This document shows, one piece after another, positions 1,619 through 33,883 of a stretch of DNA of 64,000 nt. The translations under genes were made by a program, and so were the position numbers. This DNA is from Syntrophales bacterium (lineage in GTDB: Bacteria > Desulfobacterota > Syntrophia > Syntrophales > PHBD01). Under the pieces are notes generated by a model. It worked only from the letters and a program-made list of their open reading frames with translations. It searched no databases and was not told where the DNA came from. Every line of letters begins with the position of its first letter. The first letter of the stretch is position 1. The stretch spans positions 2,304,001 to 2,368,000 of the forward strand of contig OY764159.1 of assembly GCA_963668175.1 (NCBI GenBank), read 5' to 3'.

Positions 1619-3505
1619 TCAGAAGTCCCTGAAATCGCCTTCGTCGGTTAATGCGGTCTTTTTGATTTTCGTTCTCGGATTTTGGGCGCCGCGCCCGGCA
1701 GCGGGCGCCGGCAGGGCCGCTTTCGCCGTTCCCCGCAACTTGGCGGCGGGCCGGTCCGGGATGGCGGGCTCCGCCTCCTTTGCCTTGTCCGCCCGGATAT
1801 AGACGTTGCCGCCGACGACCGCCTGCAACCCTTTCACATGGTCCTGCATCTGAGCGGCCTGGGCCTTCAATTCTTCGGCGGTGCCGGCCGACTCCTCGGC
1901 GCCGGCGGCCGTGCGCTGCGTCACCTTATCCATCTCCGAGACGGCCCTGTTGATCTGTTCGATCCCCTGGGCCTGTTCCTTCATGGACGAATCGATGGCC
2001 TTGATCAGCTCGTTGGTCTTCTTGCCTTCTTCGCCCATCAGGTAGAAATCCTGCAACGTCCTGGCCACCAGGCTGTTGCCGTTGTCGATTTCCTGCAGCA
2101 TTTCGCCGAGTATCTTCTCGGTGTTCTTGGCCGCCTCGGCCGAGCGCATGGCGAGGCTGCGCACTTCTTCGGCGACGACGGCGAACCCCGCCCCCGTCTC
2201 GCCGGCGCGGGCGGCCTCCACGGCGGCGTTCAAAGCCAACAGATTGATCTGGAAGGCGATTTCGTCGCTGGCCTTGATGATCTTAGCCGCCTGGGCCCCC
2301 GATACGCCGATGCGCTTCATGCAATCGCTCGTTTCGCGAAGCGACTTGTGGGAACTTCGCATGGCCTGGTATGACCTGTCCCCCGTCTCCGCCATCAGGT
2401 TGGAATTCTCCAGGGTCGTCTTGGACATGGAGGACATTTCCTCGAGGGACGAAGATGTTTCTTCCAGGGATGCGGCCTGCGTCGATGTCGAGTCCGCCAG
2501 TTCCTGGCTGGATGCGGTAATATGGTTCGCCGCGGCGGACACTTGACCGTGCGAAGCGGACAGGCCGCGTATTGCGCGGTTCAGGGTCCGGACCGCGGAC
2601 CGGACGGAGAGATAGTTTACGGCGACGATGATGAAGCCGATGACGATCGCGGCGGCAAAAGCGGGGATAATGGTGCCCATCAGCGCCCGTTCCGTCTGCG
2701 CCCGGTCCTTGCCGATAAAGAACATGCCGACGATTTTACCGTCGACGTCCTTTATGGGCCAGTAGGCCGTATCGTAATTCCTGCCCAGGATTTTGTTGAC
2801 ATTGAGGAATATCTCCCCTTTGGCGAGGACCGTATCCAGCACCCTCTGGTTGTCCATCTTCGTCCCGACGGCCCGTTTGCCGCCCGTCATGATGGTAGTC
2901 GCCACCCTTGTGTCGCCCTGGAAGATCGTGCATTCCACGCCATAGTATTTCTTCATTTCGTCCACGAAGGCGTCAGACGCAAGATCGAATCCCGCAGTCA
3001 CGGACCCGACCACGGTGTTTCCGCTGCGGACCGGGTTGCCTGCCCGGAGGGAGAATTTGACCACGGTTCCTTCCTCGACGCCCGTCGTCGCCTGGCCGGC
3101 AAGGGCCTTCTTAACATTGGCCTGTCCCAGGACACTGTCCCCCGTTTTATCGGAATGTCCGCGTCCGATTACTTTGCCGTTCCTGTCGGCAATCGTCAGA
3201 ACGGAGACCTGGCGGGACTTCACGTACCCCCTGGCGATATTCCGCACGGCGGCCGAATCCCCTTTCTCCACCGCCGCGATCAGGTCCGCTCTTTCCGACA
3301 GGACGGCGGCAACGGTGGTCGCCCTGTCCCTCATATCGTCCACGTGGATGCGAACCTGTTCGGCCATCTTTCGGACGTCCGCCTGGCTCTGTTTAAAGAC
3401 GGCGCTGCTGAGCATGAAATAGCTCGTCCAGTAAACAATTCCTCCGACCAAAACGGCCGTAATCACGATCAAAGTAATGGTTTTGCCGAACAGCGACATC
3501 TTCAT
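1619..3505 (-). CDS. methyl-accepting chemotaxis protein with Cache sensor domain
   Basis: Two TM segments, periplasmic Cache-like region, signalling hairpin [34 protein letters not shown]. Confidence 0.95.
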
Positions 3506-3632
3506 GTCCTCACCCCTGTTGTCTGCTTGGAACGATTATTTTTCCGAAGACCGCCTTCCTGATTTATCGGGCGCAACGCAACAACCGCCTGCCGGACGCC
3601 GCGATCCCCGCTGACTCCGTTTTTGATAATAC

Positions 3633-3648
3633 AGCAAATAGTGTACCA
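3633..3648 (-). promoter_or_regulatory. sigma54 (-24/-12) promoter of the MCP gene
   Basis: Minus strand TGGTACACTATTTGCT = GG-N10-GC, about 130 bp upstream of the MCP start. Confidence 0.7.
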
Positions 3649-3836
3649 CATCGGAAATCGGGGCTGAAGATGTTATGTTTAATGATAACAGATATATACG
3701 TGTTGTCGGGCTGGACGGGCGGCCTGTGTTTCCGGAATGGGGCTCCGGGGCGATCGTCGATTTTCCGGCCGCCGTCCGGTGCGGGAATGAAGGTATGCGG
3801 TTTTGTCCAGATGGATTGTTGCGATTCTCAATTCGA

Positions 3837-4454
3837 TCAGGCGCAGGAATCGGGCCGGGGGTCGCGCAGCATAAGCCAGATTGTCGGCCCGTCTTTGCCG
3901 AGCGGAAATGCCCTGGTCACCGTGAAACCGTGCCTCAGGTACAGGTCCCTGTTTCTTGCGGTCGATGCTTCCAGATAGGCGGGCAGGCGCAGTTCGTCGC
4001 ATTTGACGAGGACCTGACGCAAAAGTGCGCTTCCGGCGCCGCGCCCCTGTAACCGGGGCGTTACGGCAAGGGCAAAGAGATAATAGTGCGGGAACGACGG
4101 ATGCAGGTTCTGCATTGCCTGAACGCGGGGGAACACGATGGGCATCCGGGTGCATTTGCAGACTTTCAGGTAAGCGGGGAGCAGCGCGAGCTGTTTTGTC
4201 AGGCTCAGCTTCCACGTCCCCGGCGGACACCACAGGGCGGCCCCGGCGCCGTCGTCCGTGACGTAAACCTCGCCGAACGGGAAGGTGAGCTTATCGAAGG
4301 CCGTTTGGAAAAGAAGACGGATTGCCTCCCCGCGCTTTCCGTCCTGGCGCACCGTCCAGTTGACGAGAGGGTCGGCGTCGAAAGCCCCTGTCAATAGATC
4401 GATGCAGGCGGCGCGGTCCGATGCCGCCGCCTTGCGGATGCCGTCCGCCGCCAT
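3837..4454 (-). CDS. GNAT family N-acetyltransferase
   Basis: YYLFALAVTPRLQGRGAGSALL acetyl-CoA motif; AYLEAS..RN..LY.RHGF. Confidence 0.9.
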   Translation of the reverse strand: MAADGIRKAAASDRAACIDLLTGAFDADPLVNWTVRQDGKRGEAIRLLFQTAFDKLTFPFGEVYVTDDGAGAALWCPPGTWKLSLTKQLALLPAYLKVCKCTRMPIVFPRVQAMQNLHPSFPHYYLFALAVTPRLQGRGAGSALLRQVLVKCDELRLPAYLEASTARNRDLYLRHGFTVTRAFPLGKDGPTIWLMLRDPRPDSCA

Positions 4455-4458
4455 CGTT

Positions 4459-5448
4459 CTAATTCTCCCGGATCAACGGGTGGTGCCAGCAGCGGAAGGC
4501 GCCGCCCCACATGAAGACTGCGGAAAACGGCGTCGCGATGACGTCCTGGCCGGCCTTCGCCAGGGCCTCGCCCAGCTCCGGCAGCTCCGCAGCGACGAGG
4601 TCGGTCTTTTCGTCGAGGACTAGCATGTTCGTGGCGAGCTTCTCCTCGGCGTCCTTCGCGGGCACTTCGATGAGGTCCCAACCCTTGAGGAAGGAAGGAA
4701 GCCCGTCGGCGAACCCCTCCCTGCAAACCACCGCCAGGCCCCGCCGGGGCGTGGAGAGGACGCAGTCGAGGTGGAGGAAGTTCTTCGTCAATCGCACTTC
4801 GTGGATGCGGTAGGCCTCCCCGAGAATCGTCCGGAGGCACTGCATCCCCGCGCGGTTGGAGGCGTTGCCGCTGTTGCCCACGTAGATGTCATGGCCCAGG
4901 ACGAAGACGTCGCCGCCTTCGAGGAACGGGCCCGGCCCGAACGATCCGCTCTCGTCCTCCGCCAGCGGAGCCGGTTCGGGAATGGAGGCCAGGCGGCAGC
5001 CGCGAAGTCTTTCTGCGAGGGTCCGGCGGATGGGGAAGCGCTCGTTGCGCCGCATGGGGGCGTACATGGCCGTCTCGATAAGCGTGTCGCCGATGACGAC
5101 GATGGGGTCCCGGGGAAAGTACTGCTGGATGTTGCCGTATCCGAGGTCGGCGAGGTAGGCCTCCTCATACGGCTCGAACGGCGCAATCTGATGCACGGCG
5201 ATACCGCGGTCCCGGAGGATGGCGACGGCCCGGTCGATCTGCGCGACAGCCGCTTCGTGCAGCTCCGGCACGGCCTCCGCGAGCGTCATCCCCGCCTTCT
5301 CCTTGAGGACCTCCGCGGCCAGCGCCATGGCGGCCGGAGGCATGAAGTTCGCGACATAACGGGGAAGCCGGCTTCCCAGCCGGATGTGGGGATACCCCAC
5401 CACGGCCTCGCGCAGCCTGTCCCACTCGTATTCGACTTTCAGTGTCAT
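4459..5448 (-). CDS. amidinotransferase (glycine/inosamine-phosphate amidinotransferase-like)
   Basis: EWDRLREAVVG, FPRD, EGGD, HLD and C-terminal GGAFRCWH pentein motifs. Confidence 0.85.
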   Translation of the reverse strand: MTLKVEYEWDRLREAVVGYPHIRLGSRLPRYVANFMPPAAMALAAEVLKEKAGMTLAEAVPELHEAAVAQIDRAVAILRDRGIAVHQIAPFEPYEEAYLADLGYGNIQQYFPRDPIVVIGDTLIETAMYAPMRRNERFPIRRTLAERLRGCRLASIPEPAPLAEDESGSFGPGPFLEGGDVFVLGHDIYVGNSGNASNRAGMQCLRTILGEAYRIHEVRLTKNFLHLDCVLSTPRRGLAVVCREGFADGLPSFLKGWDLIEVPAKDAEEKLATNMLVLDEKTDLVAAELPELGEALAKAGQDVIATPFSAVFMWGGAFRCWHHPLIREN

Positions 5449-5672
5449 CCCGTTTACCTCCTGAGACGCCCATCATACCGCATCCGGAGGCATCCGGCAA
5501 GCACCGCCGAATGGCACGTTTAACTTTTAACGCGTCACATGTTTACTTAGGGAAGAAGGGAGTATGACTGCTTACACCTACCTATCAACATTAGATGTGT
5601 CTCCGGGATTTAATGATAACCGATCGTAAGGGAGTAAAACATCACATCAACTGCGCAAAAAGAAGTTATGGT

Positions 5673-5996
5673 CTAATGCCCAGTTTCTTGTGACGGGGTA
5701 AAACTTTTGCAGACGGGACACTCCGATTGACTGAGCAGATAGATTAACCACCGATCTGCACTTTGACCTTTGACGGCAAGCCATACCCAACGGGAACCGC
5801 ATGAAGGACAGCAAATGCCGATACAGGCGAATGATGAACCAAATGAGATCAAAACCATGCCAAAGAACACGGGCGACAGAAGCGTACCGTGCGAAACCCC
5901 ATAAACTAAGAGAAGTCCGCCACCAATGACAAGCACACAGCATAATACCGCTTTCCACCACTGCCCAGTTCTCTTGATAACAGAATGATCAAACAT
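5673..5996 (-). CDS. small membrane protein with two CxxC motifs
   Basis: Two hydrophobic helices followed by CPSCG and CPVC; lies in a low-GC islet. Confidence 0.6.
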   Translation of the reverse strand: MFDHSVIKRTGQWWKAVLCCVLVIGGGLLLVYGVSHGTLLSPVFFGMVLISFGSSFACIGICCPSCGSRWVWLAVKGQSADRWLIYLLSQSECPVCKSFTPSQETGH

Positions 5997-6317
5997 ATGA
6001 AAAACTCAGGATGCACAAAAGGGGGTTCAGTTCGCAATCTAGTCGTCGGTATAAAGTTTCGTGGTTCTTCGTTAAGCAGTATGGACTTTTTTTAATTTTC
6101 CACAGTATTTACATCACTAGAACTGATAACAGTATGTTATCTTGCCTAATTGATGAATGGTAGCAAGCAAATATTCGGGAAGTGTTGTCAGCATATCATG
6201 ACGTTTTGCTTGCTGCTTTCCCGATGTGTATTTCCACCGGTATTCCGTGTCCATGTTCAGTTTATATCTCGCTCAACCAGATAATCTCCGATTCAAGCAC
6301 CTTCTGACGGACTCCGT

Positions 6318-6620
6318 TCATACATGGGCAAGTTCATGAATTTGTGAAAGCCTTCTACGGCCGATGACCTTTTCCGCTGTCTTGAGGTCGTATGCTGCCT
6401 GAAGATTGATCCAAAATTGTGGTGTTTGTCCAAATGCCTTACCAAATAGCAAAGCCATTTCAGCAGTGACGGGTCTTTTACCTTTTACTACATGGGAAAT
6501 TCTCATAGCCGAAAGGCCGACAGCGCGGGCAAATACCGCTTGGGATATCCCCAATTCGTCAAGAATCTCCTTGAGAAATTCCCCCGGATGGACCGGAGGC
6601 AAAGCGTTTCTCGGATTCAT
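6318..6620 (-). CDS. higA: HigA family antitoxin
   Basis: PVHPGEFL, HTH, VTAEMAL, FWINLQAAYDL. Confidence 0.95.
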   Translation of the reverse strand: MNPRNALPPVHPGEFLKEILDELGISQAVFARAVGLSAMRISHVVKGKRPVTAEMALLFGKAFGQTPQFWINLQAAYDLKTAEKVIGRRRLSQIHELAHV

Positions 6621-17285: not shown

Positions 17286-20200
17286 TCATTTGGCTGTCGC
17301 CAGGGGGAAGTCCATGCCGCGCGAATCCACGACGGGGAATTGCGCCTCCTTCCGGTATTTCATCGTGATGTCGGGCAGGCGGTTCTCCACGTGCGTCATG
17401 AGCCTGCGGACCGTTACGGTCCTGTCGTCCGCGGACGCCCCGCCTTTCAGGCCTTCCAGGAGCGTATACGTGAAGACGCCGTGCCCCAGCTCCTTCACTT
17501 CCGCCGCGAACTGGTCCTTGGTGGAGGCGGCGATGACGTGGACGCCCGTGGAGCGCGACAGCTGCGAGAGCGCCTTGCGGTCCTCAAAGCCGCGCATGGC
17601 GATAAGCATGGCGCCCGCCTTGCAGGAGTCGATCATCACGAGGACCTTCTGGGCCCTGATGTTCCGGATCAGTCCGGCGATGTCGTCCGAGGAGATGCCT
17701 TTCGCTCTCACCTCGTCCTCCCTCTCCGGGTAGGCAATCTCATGGGGGATGAAGTACCACTTGTCCGCGATGTTCTCGCCGTGGCCCGCGAGGTAGATGA
17801 GCACGACGTCCTGGGGATTCGTCCCTTCCAGGTTTTTCAGCTGCGCCGTGATGTTCGCTTTCGTGGCCTGTTCGTCGTAGACGTCGTTGATGCTGATCTT
17901 TTTGAAAAGACCCGGCCCTTTCTCCCGGAAGAAGGCCGCGATGCCCTTCGCGTCCGGAACGGCGTAGTTCAGGTTCAGCGCGGGGTTCCTGTATGTGTTG
18001 ATGCCCACGGCCAGGACGCTCATGGCGATCTCCTTCTGCGGGGCGGTGAGGACGACCGTCAGTTCGTACGGGTTCGATTCCGTCCTGTCCCTGCTGAATC
18101 CCGCGGCCCGGAAGGTGTTTGTCCCGTCGACGAGGGCGACGCTGTAAGTCTTGGTCGTTTCCTTTTCCTTCGCCGCGATCCTGACGGCCCGCATATCTTC
18201 GCCTACGGCCTTGCCGTTGTGGTAGAGGCGTATTTCGTCGATGCCGCCGCCCGTGTCTCTGGCCGCGACCGTCACGGAGACGGTGTCGCTGCCGATCGTC
18301 TCGTTCGGGGCGGGGGAGACGATCCGCACCTCCGGCGGCGTCATGACGCCTTTGCGGATGTCCGCGGCGGCTTCGATTTTTTTGCCCTGCAACACGGACG
18401 CCACGTAGGCGGGGTTGAAGAATTTTTCGTAGAAGTTGTCGATCGCGTAAACCTTGTTGCCGATTCTTACGTTTATATGGCCGGCTCCGTTAGGCGATGC
18501 ATTGAAGTATCCGTCGGGCGTGACGGCAACCCATTCGCCGTTGGAAAAAGCCGTCCATGTGCAGATTTCGCTGCCCCCGGCGACATCCCATATTTTGATG
18601 ACCCCGCCTGCATCGCCGGAAAGGATTCGACGCCCGTCGGCCTGAACGGCTATGGACTGGACGTGGTCGGCATGTCCCCGAAGCGTTTTGACGACGCTTC
18701 CCGTCGCTGTATCGAACAACTTGATGTCGGGACCGCTGCCTGCGACGACCTGCCGCCCGTCCGGACTGAATGCGACGGTAACGATAGATTCGTCCTTGTC
18801 CGTCTTGAATTCCCGCATCAGCCTGCCTGCGGCGATATCCCAGAGATCGATGTAACTGTGAGGATTGCCCAGCGTCACCGCCATCCCCCCCAGGAGCACA
18901 TATTTACCATCGGGGCTGAAGGCGATTTTTCTCAGGCTATGCGAATCGGCCGTGTACCGCTGGCTTTGCTGTCCCGCCCACAGCGTGACGGGCTTATCGA
19001 AGGATCTGATCCTCCTGCCCGTCGCCGCGTCGAAAAGATGCCTTCCCAGGACGGCATAACGGCCGTCGGGGCTCAATGCCGCAGCGTAGGAACTGAACGC
19101 ATCTCCCTCATCGCCCGCGAATGTCCGGACAAGCTGCCCGGTATGATAGTCCCACATCCCGGCTTCCTTGCCGCCCTGTTTTACGGAAATACCGTAAAGA
19201 CGGCCGTTACGGCTTACGATGTCCGTATTATGGGGACCTTTAAGAGTCCTGATCGTTTTGCCCGATGACGGGTCCCAAAAGGTTACGGTGCTGTCCGTTA
19301 ATGAGGAGGAAACGATGGATCGGCCGTCAGGCGTAACAACTACGCCCGTAATGTCCTTGTGCCCCTTGAGCGTCTTCATCAGGCGTCCGCTCGATAAATC
19401 CCATAGCTGGACGCCTCCGTGGTAACTTCCCGCAATGGCGTGCGGCGTGTCCGGACTGAACGCAACAGAGTATACGGCGCTGGCGGAGGTCCGGTCTCTG
19501 AATGTTCCCAGTTCCCTGCCCGTCGTCATCTCCCAGATTTTGACGCCGGAGCCCCCGGAAAACAGCCGGCGGCCGTCCGCGCTGAAGGACATCGCCCTGA
19601 CGTACGGGTGATCGAAAGTCGCAATCTCCCGGCCTGTCGATAATTCCCATATCTTGATTTTTCCCCCGTTTTCGTTTCCCGCTGCGGCATATTTCCCGTC
19701 CGGGCTGAACTGCACGGTGCTTATGCTCGCGGCATCCATCGGCAGCGGTCTGACCAGGCGGCCCGTCGATGCGTCCCATAGCTTGACGGCGATATTCTCT
19801 TTCTCGACGAGATTGGAATGCCCGGAAAGGATGTATTGCCCGTCGGGGCTGAAAGCGACGGCCTTGATTCCCGATGTGCTGCGGTCCCAGTGGCGGAATG
19901 TCCTGACGATTTCACCCGTGTTGGCATTCCAGAGGACGACGTCGTTCCAGTCCTTCATATCGAGACGCGCAGACGGGTTACCGCCGGCCAGGACATAACG
20001 GCCGTCCGGGCTCACCGCGACGCTGTGCACGAAAGTGAAGGGGCCTTGAAAGGTCCGGACGTTTCTGCCCGTCGCAATATCCCAGAGCCTGGCCGTGCCG
20101 TCGTTGCTTCCCGATACGGCATAACGGCCGTCGGCGCTCACGGCCACGGAATTGACCTGACCAGCATGCCCCTGAAATGCCCTGATCTCCGAACCCGTGA

Positions 20201-20519
20201 CCACATCCCAGAGCCTGCGTGTGTTGTCTTCGCTTCCGGACAGCGCAAACGCCCCGTCGCGGCTGAAGGCGACGGAGAGCACGTTTCGGGCATGGCCCTT
20301 GAATGCCCTGATCTCCCTGCCTGAGGAAACGTCCCAGAGTCTTATGGCCGGATCGTAGCCGCTTGTCAGAAGATAGCGGCCGTCCCTGCTCAAATCCATG
20401 GCGACGGCATGCGACAGCGGCTGCTGAACGAACAGTTCCGGTTGCTCCGCGGCGACAGACGGCAGCGGCACGGCAAACACGGCTAACAAAAGGACGATTC
20501 TCGCAACAAGCGTTGGCAT
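17286..20519 (-). CDS. secreted WD40-repeat protein with C-terminal caspase-like (C14) domain
   Basis: Signal peptide, over ten GH...WD repeats, Ig-like linker, YLAGHG and IDSCKAG His/Cys dyad, HGVFTYTLLEGL. Confidence 0.9.
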   Translation of the reverse strand: MPTLVARIVLLLAVFAVPLPSVAAEQPELFVQQPLSHAVAMDLSRDGRYLLTSGYDPAIRLWDVSSGREIRAFKGHARNVLSVAFSRDGAFALSGSEDNTRRLWDVVTGSEIRAFQGHAGQVNSVAVSADGRYAVSGSNDGTARLWDIATGRNVRTFQGPFTFVHSVAVSPDGRYVLAGGNPSARLDMKDWNDVVLWNANTGEIVRTFRHWDRSTSGIKAVAFSPDGQYILSGHSNLVEKENIAVKLWDASTGRLVRPLPMDAASISTVQFSPDGKYAAAGNENGGKIKIWELSTGREIATFDHPYVRAMSFSADGRRLFSGGSGVKIWEMTTGRELGTFRDRTSASAVYSVAFSPDTPHAIAGSYHGGVQLWDLSSGRLMKTLKGHKDITGVVVTPDGRSIVSSSLTDSTVTFWDPSSGKTIRTLKGPHNTDIVSRNGRLYGISVKQGGKEAGMWDYHTGQLVRTFAGDEGDAFSSYAAALSPDGRYAVLGRHLFDAATGRRIRSFDKPVTLWAGQQSQRYTADSHSLRKIAFSPDGKYVLLGGMAVTLGNPHSYIDLWDIAAGRLMREFKTDKDESIVTVAFSPDGRQVVAGSGPDIKLFDTATGSVVKTLRGHADHVQSIAVQADGRRILSGDAGGVIKIWDVAGGSEICTWTAFSNGEWVAVTPDGYFNASPNGAGHINVRIGNKVYAIDNFYEKFFNPAYVASVLQGKKIEAAADIRKGVMTPPEVRIVSPAPNETIGSDTVSVTVAARDTGGGIDEIRLYHNGKAVGEDMRAVRIAAKEKETTKTYSVALVDGTNTFRAAGFSRDRTESNPYELTVVLTAPQKEIAMSVLAVGINTYRNPALNLNYAVPDAKGIAAFFREKGPGLFKKISINDVYDEQATKANITAQLKNLEGTNPQDVVLIYLAGHGENIADKWYFIPHEIAYPEREDEVRAKGISSDDIAGLIRNIRAQKVLVMIDSCKAGAMLIAMRGFEDRKALSQLSRSTGVHVIAASTKDQFAAEVKELGHGVFTYTLLEGLKGGASADDRTVTVRRLMTHVENRLPDITMKYRKEAQFPVVDSRGMDFPLATAK

Positions 20520-20927: not shown

Positions 20928-21055
20928 TTCCTAGGACTCCTGTCAAAGAAGGGCGGCAACCCGGCCGTCTGCCATGGTTTTAAGGCGGTTGCCGCGGCAA
21001 GGAAACAAGTGAACAGGAACATAACCAGATGATCTATCCAATGAAAGGGAGCATC

Positions 21056-21802
21056 ATGAAAAAAATGAGGGAAACAAAATTCGGAATTGCCTTGGGCATA
21101 GCCGTCCTGCTGTTCGTATGGACGTCACCGGTGCAGGCGACGACTTTCAATCTTTCGACGCTTAACGTCAATCCCACCGGCAATCACGGTTACTACACAG
21201 GGACGGGTGGTACCGGCACCTACGTTTTCAGCAGTGCCGGTGTACAGCAAAATCCGTGGACGCAGAGTCTCGGCAACCCGGATCAGGCATCGATAAACTT
21301 TTCGGTACCCACCATGGGAAACAACGGCGGCAAAATCTACATGACTGCCGGTGCGCTGTTTCCGATCCCGACCGGCCAAACGCTGGGCGCGGGCCAGACC
21401 GGCTACAGCGGAGATTACAATCTGGGCAGCTTCCCGCTCTACTTCGCGTTCTCCAACCCGACCTACGATAACAACTGCGGTTTCAACTGCAACACCATCA
21501 CCCAGAGACCCGTCACGCTCAACTCTTTATGGGTAACGGGCGGTACTGGCGCGACCATCACCGGTTATTCCGATCTCGGGCATACCGTGCTCTACACCAT
21601 GGTGATCACCGGCAGCGGCCTTCAGCAGATCATCCTCAACTGGACCGGCGTCGAGGAAGTCTCGATTTCCGGCAGCGGTTTCTACGTTAACGATATTGAG
21701 GTGAACGACCCCATTGCCGCCGTTCCTGAACCGGCCAGCATGCTGCTTCTCGGCTTCGGGCTCGCCGGCGCCGCGTTCGCGCGGAAAAAATTCCGGAAAT
21801 AG
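21056..21802 (+). CDS. PEP-CTERM sorting domain protein
   Basis: Signal peptide; C-terminal VPEPASMLLLGFGLAGAAFARKKFRK. Confidence 0.95.
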   Translation: MKKMRETKFGIALGIAVLLFVWTSPVQATTFNLSTLNVNPTGNHGYYTGTGGTGTYVFSSAGVQQNPWTQSLGNPDQASINFSVPTMGNNGGKIYMTAGALFPIPTGQTLGAGQTGYSGDYNLGSFPLYFAFSNPTYDNNCGFNCNTITQRPVTLNSLWVTGGTGATITGYSDLGHTVLYTMVITGSGLQQIILNWTGVEEVSISGSGFYVNDIEVNDPIAAVPEPASMLLLGFGLAGAAFARKKFRK

Positions 21803-24460: not shown

Positions 24461-25618
24461 TCAGCGCTGGTTGCCGTAGATCTTGGCGAAGCCGTTCCCC
24501 CGCGAGCCTTGATTCTGGCAGACGGAGTTCCGGTCCAGGTCGAGGTTGTACCACCCGGCGGACAGGTCGAGGGACACGTCGAATATCCGCTCGCACCACT
24601 GGCGCTGATGCGTATCGCAGTTGCCCTGCCTGGAGGCGATGCCCGCCGCGCCATGGGGGCCGTTCAGGATGGCCGAGAGGTTCCCGCCGTCCCTTCGCGC
24701 GTCGCTCCAGACGACGATGCGCGAGACAAATGAATCGCGCCGGAGTTCGAACCTGACGCGGTTCGTCGTGCTGCACACGTAGCCGTTCCAGTTGTCGAAG
24801 AGGACCATGTCCGGCGACGGCCCGGGGCCCTTTGTACGGGCGGGCGCGGCGCAGGTGTACATGCGGCCGGGGCTGGCCCCGCCGCGGCAGGATTCGGTGG
24901 CGACGTTCTTGTAGGTGCAATTACGGTCCCAGCAGACGGCGGTCTGGCCGCGGAAAGCGTCGGTGCATTTCGACGGGTCGGGATTCGGCCCGGAGGAACC
25001 GGCGACGTCGCGGCCGGGGCAGTCGCCGATGCCTGCGGACTGCCAGTTTCCGATATTCGCGCGCTGCGCGGGGCGTGCGTCGCAGACATACATGCGGCCG
25101 GGGCTGGCTCCGCCGCGGCAGGAATCGACGGCGACGTTCTTGTAGGTGCAATTACGGTCCCAGCATACGGCGGTCTGTCCCTGGAAGGCGTCGGTGCATT
25201 TCGCCGGGTCGGGGTTCGGCCCGGAGGAACCGGCGACGTCGCGTCCCGGGCAGTCGCCGATGCCGACGGACCGCCAGTTTCCGATATGGACCGGCTGCGC
25301 GGGCGGCCCCTCGCAGACGTACATGCGGCCGGGGCTGGCTCCGCCGCGGCACGAATCGACGGCGACGTTCTTGTAGGTGCAGCCCTGGTTCCAGCAGACG
25401 GCGGTCTGTCCGCGGAAGGCGTCGGTGCATTTCGACGGATCGGGATTCGGCCCGGAGGAGCCGGCGACGTCGCGGCCGGGGCAGTCGCCGATGCCGACGG
25501 ACCGCCAGTGGTTGGGGCCCGCAGCCTGGACCGATGCCGCGCAGAAAACAACAATGAAAAGGACGATCAAGGCCGCTTCCCACGGACGGCGATCTCCCGA
25601 TAATCTGTAACGGTTCAT
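24461..25618 (-). CDS. secreted cysteine-rich tandem-repeat protein
   Basis: Signal peptide ending VQA; three 77-aa repeats with 6 Cys each; beta-rich C-domain; RBS AAGGAGG; TTGACA-17-TATAGT promoter at 25660-25688. Confidence 0.85.
   Translation of the reverse strand: MNRYRLSGDRRPWEAALIVLFIVVFCAASVQAAGPNHWRSVGIGDCPGRDVAGSSGPNPDPSKCTDAFRGQTAVCWNQGCTYKNVAVDSCRGGASPGRMYVCEGPPAQPVHIGNWRSVGIGDCPGRDVAGSSGPNPDPAKCTDAFQGQTAVCWDRNCTYKNVAVDSCRGGASPGRMYVCDARPAQRANIGNWQSAGIGDCPGRDVAGSSGPNPDPSKCTDAFRGQTAVCWDRNCTYKNVATESCRGGASPGRMYTCAAPARTKGPGPSPDMVLFDNWNGYVCSTTNRVRFELRRDSFVSRIVVWSDARRDGGNLSAILNGPHGAAGIASRQGNCDTHQRQWCERIFDVSLDLSAGWYNLDLDRNSVCQNQGSRGNGFAKIYGNQR
24851..25510. repeat. three tandem 231-bp coding repeats
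   Basis: Equivalent Trp codons at 25505, 25274 and 25043; long near-identical DNA stretches. Confidence 0.95.
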
Positions 25619-27085: not shown

Positions 27086-28246
27086 TCAGCCGGGCGCGAC
27101 CGTACCCTTCGATTCGAGATAGCTCTGCGCGTCGCTGTAGGCCTTGAAGTCGGGCAGTTCCATGTCCTCCACCTTGCGCATGCCGGCGAGGAAGGTGATC
27201 TTCACCCCTTTGAGGGGCACGCCGCACTTGTTGAGGACGGCGAGGGCGTTTAAGAGATGATCCTTCCCGGGCCGGTAATGGCCGCTTGCGTTGTCGATGC
27301 CGGTGAGCTTGCCCGCGGCGACGTCGATGGCGCCGGCGAAGGTCACCGCCACACCGTTCATAATGGACGAGTGGTGGAAAAGGAGGCCGTCGGGCTGTTC
27401 CCCCATGCTGCAATAGAGGTTGGCCTTGTCGTCGATGATGAAGATGTAGCCCGTGCCGCCCGTGTCGAGGAGGACCAGGTCCGTTGTCGCCGTCGAGACG
27501 GCGCTCGTGCGGCGGTACATCAGGCCGCCCTGGACGACGATCTGGTAGCGCCAGCGGTTCTCCGGCTTGACGTACTTGACCTTCGAGTCGAGTTCCGGGT
27601 GGTTGCGGGCGAAATTGAAGGCGAACTTCTCGCCGCTTCTGCCGAAGGCATTGCCGAAATCCGCGCCCTGGATGTGCTCCGGGTTCGACCCGCCGATGTT
27701 CGTTTCGAGCCAGTAGTGCGAGTCGAGCGCTTTCTTGTCCTTGCCGACGCCCAGGTGCTTCATGGCGTCGCGCGCCATCTGCCAGCGCAGCTTCGCCGCC
27801 GTCGAGCCGATGATTTCGCTTTGCTTGGGCGGCTTTCCGCCCCTGGCGGGCGGGCCGGTGAACTTGAGGTCGAGCCCGAGCGAGTCGGCGTTCTGCTGGG
27901 CGTTCATTGCCAGGTTCGCCACGTACTTGCGCCGGTTGCTCGAATCGGTCTGGGCCTTGTGCTCCATCCAGACCATGGCCGCCTTGGCGATGCCCAGAAG
28001 GAGCAGCGCGGTGATCCGCGCCCGCGTCTTCTTGGCTTCCGTCGATTCCTTCGAGTCGTCGAAGGGTGTGGCCTCCGACTTGTCGAACTCTTCGAGGGCA
28101 CGGTCGATGGAAAGAAGATCGGGGTTCTTGCGGGAGTGGGTGAAGATGCCGAGCGTCTTGATGGTGGTCAGGCTCTGCCACTCCCTGACGGTGGGAATGC
28201 CTTCGAAATGATCGCGAAGCTGTCGATAGGGGAAATGGCGCGGCAT
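27086..28246 (-). CDS. hypothetical effector-like protein with IQM-like C-terminal domain
   Basis: YWLE, VKYV.PE.R..Y.I.V..G, YIFII, FHHSS..G..V.FAG, IDNASGHYRP; TTGACA-17-TATGTT promoter at 28300-28328. Confidence 0.75.
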   Translation of the reverse strand: MPRHFPYRQLRDHFEGIPTVREWQSLTTIKTLGIFTHSRKNPDLLSIDRALEEFDKSEATPFDDSKESTEAKKTRARITALLLLGIAKAAMVWMEHKAQTDSSNRRKYVANLAMNAQQNADSLGLDLKFTGPPARGGKPPKQSEIIGSTAAKLRWQMARDAMKHLGVGKDKKALDSHYWLETNIGGSNPEHIQGADFGNAFGRSGEKFAFNFARNHPELDSKVKYVKPENRWRYQIVVQGGLMYRRTSAVSTATTDLVLLDTGGTGYIFIIDDKANLYCSMGEQPDGLLFHHSSIMNGVAVTFAGAIDVAAGKLTGIDNASGHYRPGKDHLLNALAVLNKCGVPLKGVKITFLAGMRKVEDMELPDFKAYSDAQSYLESKGTVAPG

Positions 28247-28447
28247 ATGTAATTCCTTCTAAAAGTAGATGATCTGAACGACAATATAAGACTTTGCATA
28301 ACATAATCGAAAGGACTCGGCCTGTCAACGAGAAAAGGCGAAGAGGAGCCTCAAGTGCAAAAGACAGCATATGCGGAATATGAGCGTGACGTCCAAAGGT
28401 TGCAGCTCGATATTTCCCCTACGCCAAGCCGGCGGCAGCTTGAAAAG

Positions 28448-28656
28448 CGTAAGAATATTTTACATATCTTCTACTCCAACGGCTAGGCGCCAAGGATATC
28501 AGATTTTTACATAAATTGTCTAACAATGACCTGCAACTGTGCCCAAAGCAGTGATTTGGTGTCGGATATCTTTACAATATATTGCCTTCGGAAAGATCGC
28601 TCCAGCTATAATATCATAATAAATCAATGGCTTATGCTGGTGGCATGCGTCTTGCT
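28448..28656 (+). promoter_or_regulatory. sigma54 promoter with enhancer boxes and IHF site (PEP-CTERM gene 2)
   Basis: TGGCATGCGTCTTGCT at 28641-28656; (T/C)GT-N11-ACA at 28448-28464 and 28560-28576; AATCAATGGCTTA (IHF consensus) at 28622-28634. Confidence 0.8.
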
Positions 28657-28722
28657 CATTATACGGCGAAAATCGGGTCCCGATCCGGAGCGGACATGCG
28701 GACGGGAGAAGGGAGATATACC

Positions 28723-29361
28723 TTGAAGAAATTGCAATATCTGTTGATCGTATTCGTGTTCGTGTTCGGTCTCTCCGGCGTGGCATCGGCCGCTACTATT
28801 AATTACTCTTTCGGCGTCGACGGCAACAATTACACATCGGCCTATAGCGGCGTGACCGTCGAGACCTTCGAAGGCAGTCTTCTGTGGGGCTGGTCGGGCA
28901 ACGGGGCCGTCGTGACCGGCAGTACGTCGACCTACTCCGCCCCGTTCGGCGTCAGCGCGAAGGATGCGACGCATTATCTGACCGTTCCGTATACGAGCGG
29001 TTCGGGAAGCTACACGGCATCGCTCGGCGCGACTTACAATTACCTCGGCATCTGGTGGGGTTCCGTCGATACGTACAATACGATCAGTTTCTATAAGAAC
29101 GGTCTTCAGGTTGCGTCCTACACGGGTTCGGACATCGCGGCAAGCGCCGACGGCGACCAGACGTCCCACCTGACGAACCTTTACGTCAACTTCCTCGGTC
29201 TGCCCGATTTCGACAGTTTCAAACTGACGAGCACGAGCTACGCTTTCGAGGTCGACAACATCGCCGTCGGGAACGTCGCCGTTCCCGAACCGTCAACGAT
29301 GATGCTTCTGGGCCTGGGTCTGGCGGGGGCGGCTGCGGCACGAAGAAGATTCAGAAAATAA
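28723..29361 (+). CDS. PEP-CTERM sorting domain protein (WGSxD-type passenger domain)
   Basis: TTG start after GGGAGA; signal peptide; YLGIWWGSVDTYN; VPEPSTMMLLGLGLAGAAAARRRFRK. Confidence 0.9.
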   Translation: MKKLQYLLIVFVFVFGLSGVASAATINYSFGVDGNNYTSAYSGVTVETFEGSLLWGWSGNGAVVTGSTSTYSAPFGVSAKDATHYLTVPYTSGSGSYTASLGATYNYLGIWWGSVDTYNTISFYKNGLQVASYTGSDIAASADGDQTSHLTNLYVNFLGLPDFDSFKLTSTSYAFEVDNIAVGNVAVPEPSTMMLLGLGLAGAAAARRRFRK

Positions 29362-32122: not shown

Positions 32123-32341
32123 CGAAGGCCTCCCCGTAACGGTGCATGGTGTCCGCCCGGGCATGCGAGTCGGGCGGAACGGTATGCGGGCAATTGCACC
32201 AGAAAGCTATAGGATAGCCGGCGAGATGTCAAAGGGAAAGTGGGGCCCGGACCCGGGCGCGGCGCGGACGTTTCTTGACACCGGCCGCCGCCTGTATTAG
32301 ATATAGGGCATCATTCGCGGGCGACGGAAGGAGAAACGGCT

Positions 32342-33883
32342 ATGGCCTACACCGACAAGGACGGCATACTCAACCCGGGGCACAACCCCGTCGTCGAGAT
32401 TAAGGATGCCAGGATTCCGGCGGGCAAGGGGTCCTGGTCCAAGATCAGCGGCTTCTGGGTCGGCAAGCACGACCTCTTCGAATGCCAGCCTTATCCGGCC
32501 CAGATCGGCAGAAACGGCGGCTTTTTTACCGCCCTCTCCGCCGCCGAGACGCTGCTGCCCCTCTTTTCGGTGAGTGCGACGAAGGACCTCCGGGGCGGCT
32601 CGGTGATCGTCCGGCTCTTCGTTCCCGGCACGGACCAGGTCGTCTTCTACAAGGTCGAGAAGAACCTCTTCGCGAGCAAGGAAATCCCGGACCACAGGCA
32701 TTCGGCCTATTGGGTCTACATGATGGAGAAGGCCTTCGCCTGGCACCGGATGCAGTACAACCTTCCCGCTCCCGACGGCGGCAAGCCCAAGGACTACCTG
32801 GCGGCGCTTAAGGGAACGACCTTTGGCAGCGCCTTGCAGATGCTCGTGGGCAAAACCAGGGCGGGCGAACTGACCCGCGACCGCCAGGTGCGCGTCCGGG
32901 CGGTGGAGCGCCTCCACGACCTCCACCATTTCGACGACTATGCGGCGCGGGCGGTCCAGCTCATCATGGACCCCAACGCCGTGGACCAGGACTGCTTCGG
33001 CGTCTGCGGCATGGCCTCGACCATCCACGTCGTCCTCAAATTCCGGCCGGGACGCTTCGCCGACATCCTCCATTCGGTCTTCAACGGCGAGGACTTCAAG
33101 GGCGGCGTCGGCAAGCTGAAAATTCCCATCAAGATCAGCGCCCATGCGGCCAACTACCAGGAGGTGATGAAGGATATCCAGACGGGTCCCGTCGCCGCGG
33201 GCGAACCGCCCACCGACGTCAGCGCCCTTTTGACGAAGCGGATCGACCAGTACAAGCACAAGATGGCCGTCAAGCCGTCCCAGAAGCCCTGGGCGAAACT
33301 CGATTTCATCGTGAGCCGGTCCCTCGCCAGGATGCTCAAGATCACCGATTCCGCCCTCTACAACGACCAGAAGGAATTCACCAAAAAGTTCGCCGACCCG
33401 GCCAAGCCGAACGTCGACCTTGTCAAGATGGGGGATATGGCGTTCACCGAGGCGGGCATCGTCTACGTCCTTACGGACATCGTCGGCGTTCCCGAGTTGA
33501 GCTTCGTCGCGAACCCGAGCGGGCCGGAGAACATCGTCAAGGCCGTCAACGCCTGGTTCGACAGGTACGGCGACCATGGGGCCTTCGGCATCGCCGCCAT
33601 CAACCCCTTCTACGAAACGAAGGACGACAAGCGCTGGTGGTTCTTTCCCGACGGCCGGAACGTCTACCCGGGCCTGAAGTCGCCCGTCCGGGACTGGGTC
33701 CAGCCCGCCTGGCAGCCCTACGAGTTCGCCCACTGGATCGTCATAGAAGGCAAGATCGAGGACCGGAACTTCTGGTGGCTCCCGATCTGGACCTGGGCCC
33801 GGCAGTGGGAGGGACGGCTCCACAAGATCCACACGGCGGGCTACCTCCATTCGGTGATCCTCGCGCGGCTGGAGCCGGAATAA
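32342..33883 (+). CDS. hypothetical protein with two papain-fold-like segments
   Basis: Calpain-like VRLF...WVYMMEKAFA...ALQMLVG; second segment DQDCFGVCGMAS...HWIVI...IWTW; RBS AAGGAG. Confidence 0.75.
   Translation: MAYTDKDGILNPGHNPVVEIKDARIPAGKGSWSKISGFWVGKHDLFECQPYPAQIGRNGGFFTALSAAETLLPLFSVSATKDLRGGSVIVRLFVPGTDQVVFYKVEKNLFASKEIPDHRHSAYWVYMMEKAFAWHRMQYNLPAPDGGKPKDYLAALKGTTFGSALQMLVGKTRAGELTRDRQVRVRAVERLHDLHHFDDYAARAVQLIMDPNAVDQDCFGVCGMASTIHVVLKFRPGRFADILHSVFNGEDFKGGVGKLKIPIKISAHAANYQEVMKDIQTGPVAAGEPPTDVSALLTKRIDQYKHKMAVKPSQKPWAKLDFIVSRSLARMLKITDSALYNDQKEFTKKFADPAKPNVDLVKMGDMAFTEAGIVYVLTDIVGVPELSFVANPSGPENIVKAVNAWFDRYGDHGAFGIAAINPFYETKDDKRWWFFPDGRNVYPGLKSPVRDWVQPAWQPYEFAHWIVIEGKIEDRNFWWLPIWTWARQWEGRLHKIHTAGYLHSVILARLEPE

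Follow-up and report, generated by a model that had tools for sequence, protein, structure and literature searches.

A 386-residue Syntrophales protein joining a Tox-EDA39C/IQM domain to a predicted 4HBM-like bundle: a candidate stand-alone toxin- or effector-type architecture

Closest described systems

Tox-EDA39C was named by Zhang, de Souza, Anantharaman, Iyer and Aravind (2012, Biol Direct 7:18; PMC3482391), whose text, in the portions available, describes an alpha+beta domain related by homology to the C-terminal part of plant EDA39/IQM1, gives its signature as 'H, Sx[HS]Y', and predicts it to be a metal-independent, RNase A-like RNase. According to the same portions, the domain occurs on T5SS, T7SS and HINT-processed polymorphic toxins as well as in short stand-alone genes. 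Ntox43/RhsT and other predicted two-histidine toxins are also described there; they resemble the protein reported here in having two conserved histidines and are a different family by description, and the lack of immunity genes adjacent to Ntox43 toxins is read as a sign of eukaryotic targets (PMC3482391, available portions). In the literature searched, the name EDA39C occurs in one paper only, Zhang et al. (2012) is the only work found on EDA39 together with a toxin, and no paper joining IQM with a polymorphic toxin and no crystal structure for IQM1 were found.

Two further systems are relevant for comparison. The plant IQM proteins (IQM1-IQM6) bind calmodulin and carry an IQ motif N-terminal to their core and a long C-terminal tail, with no N-terminal bundle. 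The 4HBM membrane-localisation domain (MLD; PF11647) is found in MARTX RID and RRSP, in the C1 domain of Pasteurella multocida toxin (PMT) and in the large clostridial glucosylating toxins (LCTs). Three 4HBM toxin classes are named by a review, the available part of which states that membrane binding requires the basic and hydrophobic loops L1-L3 (PMC3417404).

The gene and its C-terminal Tox-EDA39C domain

The gene (27086..28246, minus strand) lies in a window of 64,000 nucleotides of a Syntrophales bacterium, this window being the whole stretch of DNA analysed, and encodes 386 amino acids followed by a stop codon. It is present as a single copy in the 4.57-Mb genome and has the GC content of its neighbours. 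A Shine-Dalgarno-like GAAGGA (28254..28259, minus strand), read from the sequence as a consensus match only, is located 7 nt 5' of the ATG, while the sigma-70 promoter proposed by the initial annotation is present as TTGACA-17-TATGTT (28328..28300, minus strand), likewise a consensus match only (10/12 positions), in a promoter-search region containing three sigma-70-like sites against 0.6 expected in shuffles. Residues 1-30 are hydrophilic (mean Kyte-Doolittle -0.93) and therefore do not form a signal-peptide-like start, in agreement with the earlier claim that a signal peptide is lacking. Searches against Pfam and NCBIfam gave no hits for the 386-aa protein, and thereby recognised in it no trafficking module (PAAR, VgrG, MIX, eCIS_core, WXG or TPS) and no repeat or HINT module.

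The motifs attributed earlier to plant and fungal IQM proteins were all found in the ORF in the order quoted, on the minus strand, no strand having been given before: HYWLE (residues 177-181), VKYVKPENRWRYQIVVQGG (223-241), YIFII (267-271) followed by LY (277-278), FHHSS..G..V.FAG (290-305) and G.L..I...SGHYRP (312-326). The first of them belongs to a middle helical region (residues 146-215; 27602..27811, minus strand) with the motif HYWLE...NPxH, common to plant IQM proteins (HWLEAIDPRH), in which all 24 members have E181, N188 and P189; an HMM of this region matches 57 of the 201 proteins collected. The Tox-EDA39C core follows (residues 220-351; 27194..27589, minus strand), an alpha+beta domain delimited by homology and by the definition in the available text of PMC3482391. 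Its invariant first histidine, His292 (codon 27371..27373, minus strand), is conserved in 226/226 domain copies, while Ser321-Gly322-His323-Tyr324 (codons 27275..27286, minus strand) match the published signature 'Sx[HS]Y' (PMC3482391, available text) and are found in 221, 220, 222 and 222 of these copies, respectively, which bears out the two conserved histidines pointed out earlier. The columns of His292, Ser321, His323 and Tyr324 do not vary in two other alignments either. The C-terminal extension (residues 352-386; 27089..27193, minus strand), modelled as a beta-hairpin and a short helix, is specific to the close family according to the alignment.

The IQM-type character proposed for this part of the protein is, as judged by sequence comparison, true homology. 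A search of 1.84 billion proteins matched an IQM-type protein at E 5.3e-11; used as query in its turn, that protein retrieved plant IQM1-IQM6 with E values from 2.3e-50 to 7.7e-32. In BLASTP against Prunus persica IQM1, residues 166-349 aligned at 30 % identity (E 1e-17). Alignment of profiles from 24 bacterial and 13 plant sequences by hhalign reached a probability of 99.6 % (E 8.7e-24) over 191 columns, so that residues ~149-350 are assigned as homologous to the plant IQM core with a likeness far beyond chance. The resemblance to IQM1-IQM6 extends over ~190 residues at ~30 % identity and includes HWLE..P.H, V.YL, FHHSS/FQHSS and SGHYRP. The IQ region of the plant proteins precedes the start of the hhalign alignment, and a loose IQ pattern is present in 13/13 plant IQMs and 2/23 other bacterial members, but not in the 386-aa protein. 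That IQM1 is EDA39 is indicated by one plant match bearing the source name 'IQ-motif protein 1, embryo sac development arrest 39'.

The ORF thus shares with Tox-EDA39C the EDA39/IQM1 homology and both signature elements, a histidine in the first half of the domain and Sx[HS]Y in the second, and its model contains beta-hairpins (235-245 and 303-318), strands (267-279) and helices (292-295 and 328-340) as predicted elements of an alpha+beta fold. By these sequence features the C-terminal domain is identified as Tox-EDA39C. The link between the bacterial domain and plant EDA39/IQM1 is not new, because it was already named and drawn in 2012 (PMC3482391, available text), and the protein is a new architecture of a known, functionally uncharacterised toxin domain. 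The Pfam copy used (without PF26362) holds no model of the domain, and in the protein atlas only unnamed clusters score at least 0.9 for it, with one row at 0.89 containing PF26362 (DUF8093) in 21 % of its members.

At E ≤ 1e-3 the domain is matched by 2416 representative proteins, and the relatives scanned include architectures of toxin type. Among 27 long relatives scanned, Pfam families were recognised in 11 (none in the other 16), namely TPS and/or haemagglutinin repeats (2), eCIS_core (4), PT-HINT (2), WXG100_2 (1), Gln_amidase (1) and an ADP-ribosyltransferase toxin domain (1); all six giant relatives have WXG100_2, TPS plus haemagglutinin or a T9SS sorting domain, and T7SS_signal is present on 2/8 relatives in a separate set. 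The last domain copy ends at most 40 aa from the C-terminus in 76 of the 150 representatives listed, and 26 of these are short stand-alone forms (≤260 aa). The description of the protein as effector-like is therefore borne out for the domain, which stands at the toxin position beside such modules; trafficking or processing domains accompany it in these relatives, not in the 386-aa protein. Multiple copies also occur, with two to four (at least 90 aa each) in 23 of the 150 representatives listed and six shorter matches in the protein P0055, and repeated copies in one protein are unusual for a catalytic toxin head. In plants the homologues are endogenous regulators, so toxicity is not a necessary property of the domain.

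The domain has no solved structure, and its predicted fold gives no lead on chemistry. No chain among 48,161 matched the C-domain model at Z ≥ 5 (best Z 4.1, the phosphohistidine phosphatase 2nmm_A), and Foldseek returned no match at E ≤ 1e-3, so that the fold lends no support to the RNase prediction or to any other chemistry. Sequence searches of the PDB yielded one match with the single protein (E 1.1, taken as chance), two engineered TRAP/MtrB chains with the family profile (E 0.005 over 36 residues, treated as chance) and one match at E 3.7 with another alignment profile. A trichosanthin-like ribosome-inactivating N-glycosidase, a statement that recurs in the available text of IQM papers (PMC8469326, PMC6008652), is very improbable. 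Ribosome-inactivating proteins are absent from the rows listed for the C-domain model, comprising the best 50 of at least 500 Foldseek matches and the 20 of 48,161 chains that reach Z ≥ 2, and profile searches of the PDB sequences yielded none at E ≤ 10. It is also conceivable, at long odds, that the EDA39C/IQM domain is a membrane-acting two-histidine phosphodiesterase or phosphotransferase rather than an RNase, with a fold new to the PDB and PI-PLC-like acid/base chemistry on lipid head groups or membrane-anchored proteins, its site of action being told by the fusion to a docking bundle and the plant IQM proteins being calmodulin-gated versions; if true, this would explain the roles of IQM proteins in stomatal movement and hypersensitive cell death.

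The N-terminal helical bundle

The N-terminal bundle (residues 1-135; 27842..28246, minus strand), delimited by a predicted model and by structural matches as 4HBM/MLD-like, comprises in the model a short helix (20-27) and three main helices (42-58, 69-97 and 106-121), and the N-terminal ~140 residues are modelled as a bundle with a pLDDT of 95.5 and a pTM of 0.91. It contains the motifs TVREW (19-23), RKNPDLLSIDRALEEF (39-54) and SNRRKYVANL (103-112), on which the initial annotation had based a resemblance to the MLD; this resemblance stands in the modelled structure, where toxin bundles are the top matches, but not in sequence, where the Pfam MLD model (PF11647) matches 0/24 family members at E ≤ 10.

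In the Foldseek-seeded structural alignment the top 25 rows are all LCT glucosyltransferase domains, RID or PMT (Z 9.0-11.3, rmsd 2.2-4.2 Å, 87-115 residues), the best being TpeL (Z 11.3, rmsd 2.6 Å over 92 residues), and TcsL is also among the toxin bundles matched. In the unseeded search RID, TcdA, TcdB, PMT, Tcn-alpha and again TcdA are the top six of 48,161 chains (Z 9.7-10.3), with generic bundles next at Z 8.9, a margin of ~1 Z unit. The matched regions of RID, TcdA/TcdB/TcsL/TpeL/Tcn-alpha and PMT are presumably the membrane-localisation domains of those toxins.

A helical bundle of generic kind, for example a secretion-apparatus adaptor or an auto-inhibitory lid, with no kinship to 4HBM and no analogous function, is a doubtful but serious alternative. 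It would agree with the silence of the Pfam MLD model, which has no match at E ≤ 10 in the genome either, with the protein atlas, which offers no usable match for the N-domain among named clusters, and with the scores themselves, as Z 9.7-11.3 is within the tool's common range for helical bundles, below the level (~13) under which such bundles may share arrangement only, and generic and de novo designed bundles reach 7-8.9. However, the toxin bundles occupy all the top places in both rankings, with a Foldseek 'prob' of up to 1.00 (no match at E ≤ 1e-3) and an identity of 13-18 % compared with 2-13 % for generic rows, and the bundle is positioned N-terminal to a catalytic domain, as it is in LCT chains (matched residues 2-89). 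The bundles of RID and PMT likewise precede their catalytic domains.

The tip loops also argue against a generic bundle, as they are conserved as basic-hydrophobic. Loop L1 (residues 28-41, TIKTLGIFTHSRKN; 28124..28165, minus strand) has R39 in 22/24 members, while loop L3 (residues 98-107, AQTDSSNRRK; 27926..27955, minus strand) has S103 in 20/24, R/K105 in 22/24 and R/K106 in 20/24. In the 23/24 members with L1 aligned, L1 contains 1-5 K/R and 1-5 hydrophobic residues and L3 contains 2-9 K/R. The S-x-R noted in the earlier reading was located as S103-x-R105 in the loop preceding helix 4, and comparison by eye relates it to SGR, and IDxALEEF at the start of helix 2 to ILDALEEY, of the 4HBM consensus printed in the available part of PMC3417404. 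The model and the composition of the loops thus support a 4HBM-like fold for the bundle, which resembles the MLD in predicted fold and topology, in position beside a catalytic domain, in its L1/L3 composition and in SxR before the last helix. It differs from the MLD in its short first helix, preceded by ~19 extra residues, and in having no detectable sequence-profile similarity; moreover, the ORF encodes a 386-aa protein of an environmental anaerobe with predicted membrane binding, and not a large exotoxin. A word search with residues 1-140 retrieved four members only, all of the same family.

Genomic setting and proposed function

The gene is accessory, stand-alone and sporadic, and has no conserved immunity gene. 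None of 40 relatives' genomes and none of 400 other genomes of a phylum sample carries it, while a 10-sequence query recovered one genome locus and three metagenome loci. Neighbours differ among the window, locus L004 and loci L006/L007, and those in the window are regulators and transporters. No tRNA gene was found in the window, nor any sign of a mobile element from tRNA genes or repeats. The genome contains a T6SS cluster (TssB, C, E, F, G, K, DotU and ClpV-like) and a PAAR gene, and Hcp (PF05638) was not detected in it; the cluster is ~2.1 Mb from the gene, and therefore no evidence ties the gene to the T6SS. A search of the genome for eCIS_core gave no match, but its control matched nowhere either, so that this result is uninformative.

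The protein is provisionally identified as a stand-alone two-module toxin- or effector-type protein, in which a putative membrane-docking bundle is joined to the Tox-EDA39C domain, and the probability that it acts as proposed is roughly even (about 0.5). In the scheme that we infer for its delivery, eukaryotic aim, target, substrate and chemistry, the protein would be exported without a Sec signal, possibly via the T6SS of the genome, and its N-terminal bundle, of the kind that docks the effector domains of MARTX, PMT and large clostridial toxins on the inner face of the target membrane, would bring it to an anionic membrane once inside the recipient. The C-terminal domain (~146-351), a predicted enzyme centred on His292 and the Ser321-Gly-His323-Tyr324 loop, would then cleave a phosphoester without the need for a metal, using two histidines for acid/base catalysis, the substrate being RNA as predicted in the available text of Zhang et al. 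2012 (PMC3482391). In comparison with the Tox-EDA39C polymorphic toxins, the ORF lacks both an immunity gene and a trafficking or repeat region, having a 4HBM-like N-terminal bundle instead, a combination not mentioned in the available text of that paper (PMC3482391).

The lack of a signal peptide, trafficking domain and immunity gene would also suit a protein that is not exported, namely a cytoplasmic enzyme or conditional self-toxin in stress, defence or regulation, with the bundle regulating it or tethering it to the cell's own membrane. Such a role, which is rather unlikely, is consistent with the regulators and transporters next to the gene, with the absence of secretion genes within ~10 kb either side, with a Ser/Thr kinase gene directly upstream on the same strand at locus L007, and with the endogenous action of the plant homologues (PMC8469326, PMC6008652 and PMC7694674, available parts). 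It is opposed by the absence of any match for the 386-aa protein in PADLOC and PHROGs at E ≤ 1, by the relatives, whose recognised partner domains are all secretion, trafficking or toxin modules, by the very sporadic distribution, as expected of conflict genes, and by the N-domain, whose best structural matches are toxin modules. Those modules (the RID, LCT and PMT bundles) act inside eukaryotic cells.

An antibacterial toxin, with an immunity protein encoded elsewhere or unrecognised, is a further and improbable candidate. In the available text of PMC3482391, Imm-SuFu is among the immunity partners given for Tox-EDA39C, and a footnote is attached to the delta-proteobacteria entry. The SUFU-type immunity family, however, has no match in the complete genome, no downstream ORF is conserved across the four contexts, and the gap to the next gene, an MFS transporter, is only 135 bp, all of which agrees with the initial annotation in that no immunity gene is adjacent. 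The T6SS encoded in the genome also fits an antibacterial toxin, as such systems are often antibacterial.

The EDA39C/IQM domain is widespread: proteins exported by at least four secretion routes carry it, as do all the plant IQM proteins examined. If the bundle is a true 4HBM, this module is not confined to large exotoxins made by pathogens and occurs in small proteins of environmental anaerobes as well. The compact, confidently modelled 386-aa protein would be a convenient handle for the fold and chemistry of the domain, and a result on either would bear on the biochemical function of the plant IQM proteins.

The C-terminal domain and its toxin-type relatives

P0001 is encoded by an ORF of 386 residues (27086..28246, minus strand), whose translation contains all the motifs quoted in the initial annotation, in the order given there. 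The protein has no match in Pfam, NCBIfam or PDB sequences; an exhaustive HMMER search identified 2416 representative proteins matching it at E ≤ 1e-3 (of which 133 reach ≤ 1e-10 and 22 reach ≤ 1e-30). Residues 166–349 align with residues 171–359 of Prunus persica IQM1 (30% identity, E 1e-17, direct BLASTP), while an hhalign comparison of 24 full-length relatives from bacteria with 13 plant IQMs gave a probability of 99.6% (E 8.7e-24, 191 columns, query residues ~149–350). The likeness is thus homology rather than chance, which confirms the proposal that the C-terminal two-thirds are IQM-type. P0014, an IQM-type relative (E 5.3e-11 to P0001), itself finds plant IQM1–IQM6 (E 2.3e-50 to 7.7e-32), and EDA39 is identified here with IQM1, as one plant match to P0014 is named at source 'IQ-motif protein 1, embryo sac development arrest 39'.

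This domain was already named Tox-EDA39C, a toxin domain, by Zhang et al. 2012 (PMC3482391). That paper describes an alpha+beta domain with the conserved residues 'H, Sx[HS]Y', predicted to be an RNase A-like, metal-independent RNase, and lists Imm-SuFu as an immunity partner. Its carriers there are polymorphic toxins of T2SS, T5SS, T6SS and T7SS(LXG), with HINT and RHS, and candidate effectors of Wolbachia, Ehrlichia, Odyssella, Rickettsia, Legionella and Amoebophilus; in eukaryotes it occurs at the C-terminus of plant EDA39 and in fungi, oomycetes and Dictyostelium (PMC3482391). P0001 fits this signature, which is intact: among 226 copies of the domain that span 90 residues or more, from 201 proteins, H292 is present in all 226, S321 in 221, G322 in 220, and H323 and Y324 in 222 each, while G305 and G312 (224 each) and P326 (213) are further conserved columns. 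In the non-subscription literature searched, 'EDA39C', and likewise 'EDA39' together with 'toxin', led only to Zhang et al. 2012, and no experimental follow-up of Tox-EDA39C was found. In a protein atlas, a neighbouring cluster (score 0.89) carries PF26362 (DUF8093, Pfam 38.1) in 21% of its members, and a newer Pfam release may already include part of this domain family. In maize, hypersensitive cell death triggered by NLRs is suppressed when IQM3 is silenced (PMC7694674), which is compatible with a toxin-derived domain and proves nothing on its chemistry.

The architectures of the relatives follow a toxin/effector-head pattern, EDA39C forming the head of secreted toxins. The 150 representatives listed from the matches comprise 78 longer single-copy proteins, 26 short single-domain proteins (≤260 aa), 23 proteins with 2–4 copies of at least 90 aa each (e.g. 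P0032, P0034 and P0042), 22 sharing the P0001-type N-terminal domain and one N-terminal fragment; in 76 of these 150, no more than 40 residues separate the end of the last copy from the C-terminus. Pfam families were found in 11 of 27 long relatives and none in the other 16, the 11 containing eCIS_core (four), haemagglutinin repeats with or without a TPS domain (two), PT-HINT (two), WXG100_2 (one), a Gln_amidase toxin (one) and an ADP-ribosyltransferase exotoxin domain (one). Two of eight scanned relatives have a T7SS_signal/WXG100 N-terminus, with EDA39C at residues 360–490 of 494–495. All six giant relatives (3315–4667 aa) carry such modules, namely WXG100_2 (two), TPS plus haemagglutinin repeats (three) and a T9SS sorting domain (one). 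Repeated EDA39C copies occur in giants of all three types, which is unusual for a catalytic toxin head; P0055 has six shorter matches.

The full-length model of P0001 is of very high confidence (pLDDT 95.5, pTM 0.91, 62-sequence alignment), and the C-terminal region modelled alone has a good core (blocks 85–98) and a poor stretch at residues 183–213. Foldseek found no match to this C-terminal model in the PDB at E ≤ 1e-3, nor did profile searches of PDB sequences find anything. Alignment against 48,161 representative chains gave Z ≥ 2 for only 20 and Z ≥ 5 for none, the best being human phosphohistidine phosphatase (2nmm_A; Z 4.1, under the noise level quoted by the aligner; rmsd 4.4 Å over 85 residues). 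RNase A, barnase-type, ART and ribosome-inactivating folds were absent from the matches listed. The published RNase prediction is therefore based solely on the two histidines, and the EDA39C fold, as modelled, appears, within the reach of these searches, to have no counterpart in solved structures. The plant IQM literature likens the region to trichosanthin (PMC8469326, PMC6008652), a likeness supported neither by the fold matches listed nor by the PDB profile searches.

The N-terminal bundle

Residues 1–135 are predicted to form a helical bundle (short helix 20–27; helices 42–58, 69–97 and 106–121). Foldseek returned weak rows with high 'prob' for the glucosyltransferase domains of TcdB, TcdA and TpeL and for MARTX RID, and model residues ~4–147 superpose on TcdA/TcdB 2–89, RID 2373–2484 and PMT 586–706, which we take to be the four-helix membrane-localisation domains (4HBM) of these toxins. 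The best 25 rows of the Foldseek-seeded alignment are all such toxins (Z 9.0–11.3, rmsd 2.2–4.2 Å, 87–115 residues, 12–17% identity). As that list was seeded, an unseeded search of the 48,161 representatives was made, in which the first six places went to RID (Z 10.3), TcdA (10.3), TcdB (10.2), PMT (9.8), Tcn-alpha (9.7) and TcdA (9.7), with unrelated bundles starting at Z 8.9 and RRSP at 7.4; this margin is about one Z unit, and the aligner warns that helical bundles below Z ~13 may only share an arrangement.

Second-tier matches (Z 8.2–8.9) include anthrax edema factor (EF) in its calmodulin complexes, through the helical domain that contacts calmodulin, P0001 residues 1–158 pairing with EF 648–798. 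In plant IQM homologues the IQ motif that binds calmodulin also lies N-terminal to the core, as the bundle does in P0001; the parallel is a curiosity, possibly coincidental, and not evidence.

Loops L1 (28–41) and L3 (98–107), which by topology would lie at one tip of the bundle, keep a basic and hydrophobic character in the family alignment, R39 being retained in 22 of 24 members, S103 in 20 and R/K at position 105 in 22. According to the 4HBM review (PMC3417404), plasma-membrane binding requires such residues in L1–L3. By eye, two stretches of P0001 agree with the consensus printed there: IDRALEEF, where helix 2 begins, with ILDALEEY, and S-N-R, ahead of helix 4, with S-G-R. The initial annotation had called the N-terminus MLD-like; the best structural matches, the S-x-R motif and the loops favour this, whereas a search with the Pfam MLD model hit not one of the 24 members at E ≤ 10 and nothing in the own genome. 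A 4HBM-like, membrane-docking bundle is thus probable, at roughly two chances in three.

Gene, neighbourhood and export

The gene is single-copy in the complete 4.57-Mb genome. As the initial annotation stated, P0001 has no signal peptide (first 30 residues hydrophilic, mean Kyte-Doolittle −0.93); its most hydrophobic 19-residue stretch (76–94, score 1.62) is part of one of the bundle helices in the model. The claimed sigma70 promoter is a putative one, a sigma-70-like consensus match (TTGACA-17-TATGTT, 28328..28300, coding strand); GAAGGA, 7 nt upstream of the ATG, is likewise a consensus match only. Long ORFs overlapping the gene on the opposite strand and in other frames are expected from a GC-rich gene and were supported by no search.

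An MFS transporter gene lies 135 bp downstream, and no small ORF follows that could be an adjacent immunity gene, in agreement with the initial annotation. Two PAS histidine-kinase/response-regulator hybrids and DUF3795 and DJ-1 genes are neighbours, and PEP-CTERM sorting-signal proteins are encoded divergently (28627–29361, plus) and on the other flank (21029–21802, plus). A 1077-aa protein (17286–20519, minus), with PEP-CTERM proteins two genes away, consists nearly entirely of WD40 beta-propeller repeats and matches dozens of eukaryote-type WD40 Pfam models. Two ORFs belong to no Pfam family: a secreted 385-aa Cys-rich protein (24461–25618, minus) that has three 77-aa repeats in tandem (24839–25531, 3 × 231 nt, 83–88% identity) and a hydrophobic segment at its N-terminus, and a 517-aa ORF (32297–33850, minus) flanked by genes for a PAS histidine kinase and a methyltransferase. 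No secretion gene, tRNA, flanking repeats or GC anomaly were found around the gene.

Relatives on other contigs (51–74% identity) have different neighbours. On the metagenome contig L007, the orthologue (5145–6335, 51% identity) is directly preceded on the same strand by a gene for a Ser/Thr protein kinase (3431–4936, plus), and a CHASE2 sensor and a SpoIIE phosphatase are encoded close by. The gene is a sporadic accessory gene, being found in none of 40 relatives' genomes (8 of the same family, 32 of the same order) and none of 400 others sampled from the phylum (E ≤ 1e-8).

A search for secretion systems found a T6SS cluster at ~160–183 kb (ClpV-like ATPase, IglE-like protein with an IglE_N domain, TssB, TssC, TssK, TssE, TssF, DotU and TssG) and a PAAR gene at 156.5 kb, so a contractile export route exists; nothing ties it to the P0001 gene. 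Hcp was not detected in the genome with PF05638, and the 190-aa ORF immediately behind tssC (19320–19892 of T6SS locus L009), which has no Pfam family, may encode a divergent Hcp. A search of the genome for SUFU-type immunity families found none. The main rival explanation is that P0001 is a non-exported cytoplasmic enzyme or a conditional self-toxin.

A possible effector and its family

We infer that P0001 would be exported without a Sec signal and would dock in the recipient cell on a membrane that is anionic, where His292 and His323 may carry out metal-independent phosphoester cleavage. As a membrane-docking module adjoins the two-histidine centre, the substrate could conceivably be a membrane lipid or membrane-anchored protein rather than RNA, which we consider improbable. 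The lack of an immunity gene and a bundle best matched by toxin modules suggest that the target is eukaryotic, for instance a grazing protist, those toxins acting within eukaryotic cells; this evidence is weak, as bacterial membranes are also anionic.

Overall, the initial observation and its interpretation are upheld. The EDA39C domain and its plant link are not new, having been published in 2012 (PMC3482391). What is new is that the predicted EDA39C model has no structural neighbour among solved structures, and that a small family of stand-alone proteins joins a predicted 4HBM-like bundle to Tox-EDA39C.
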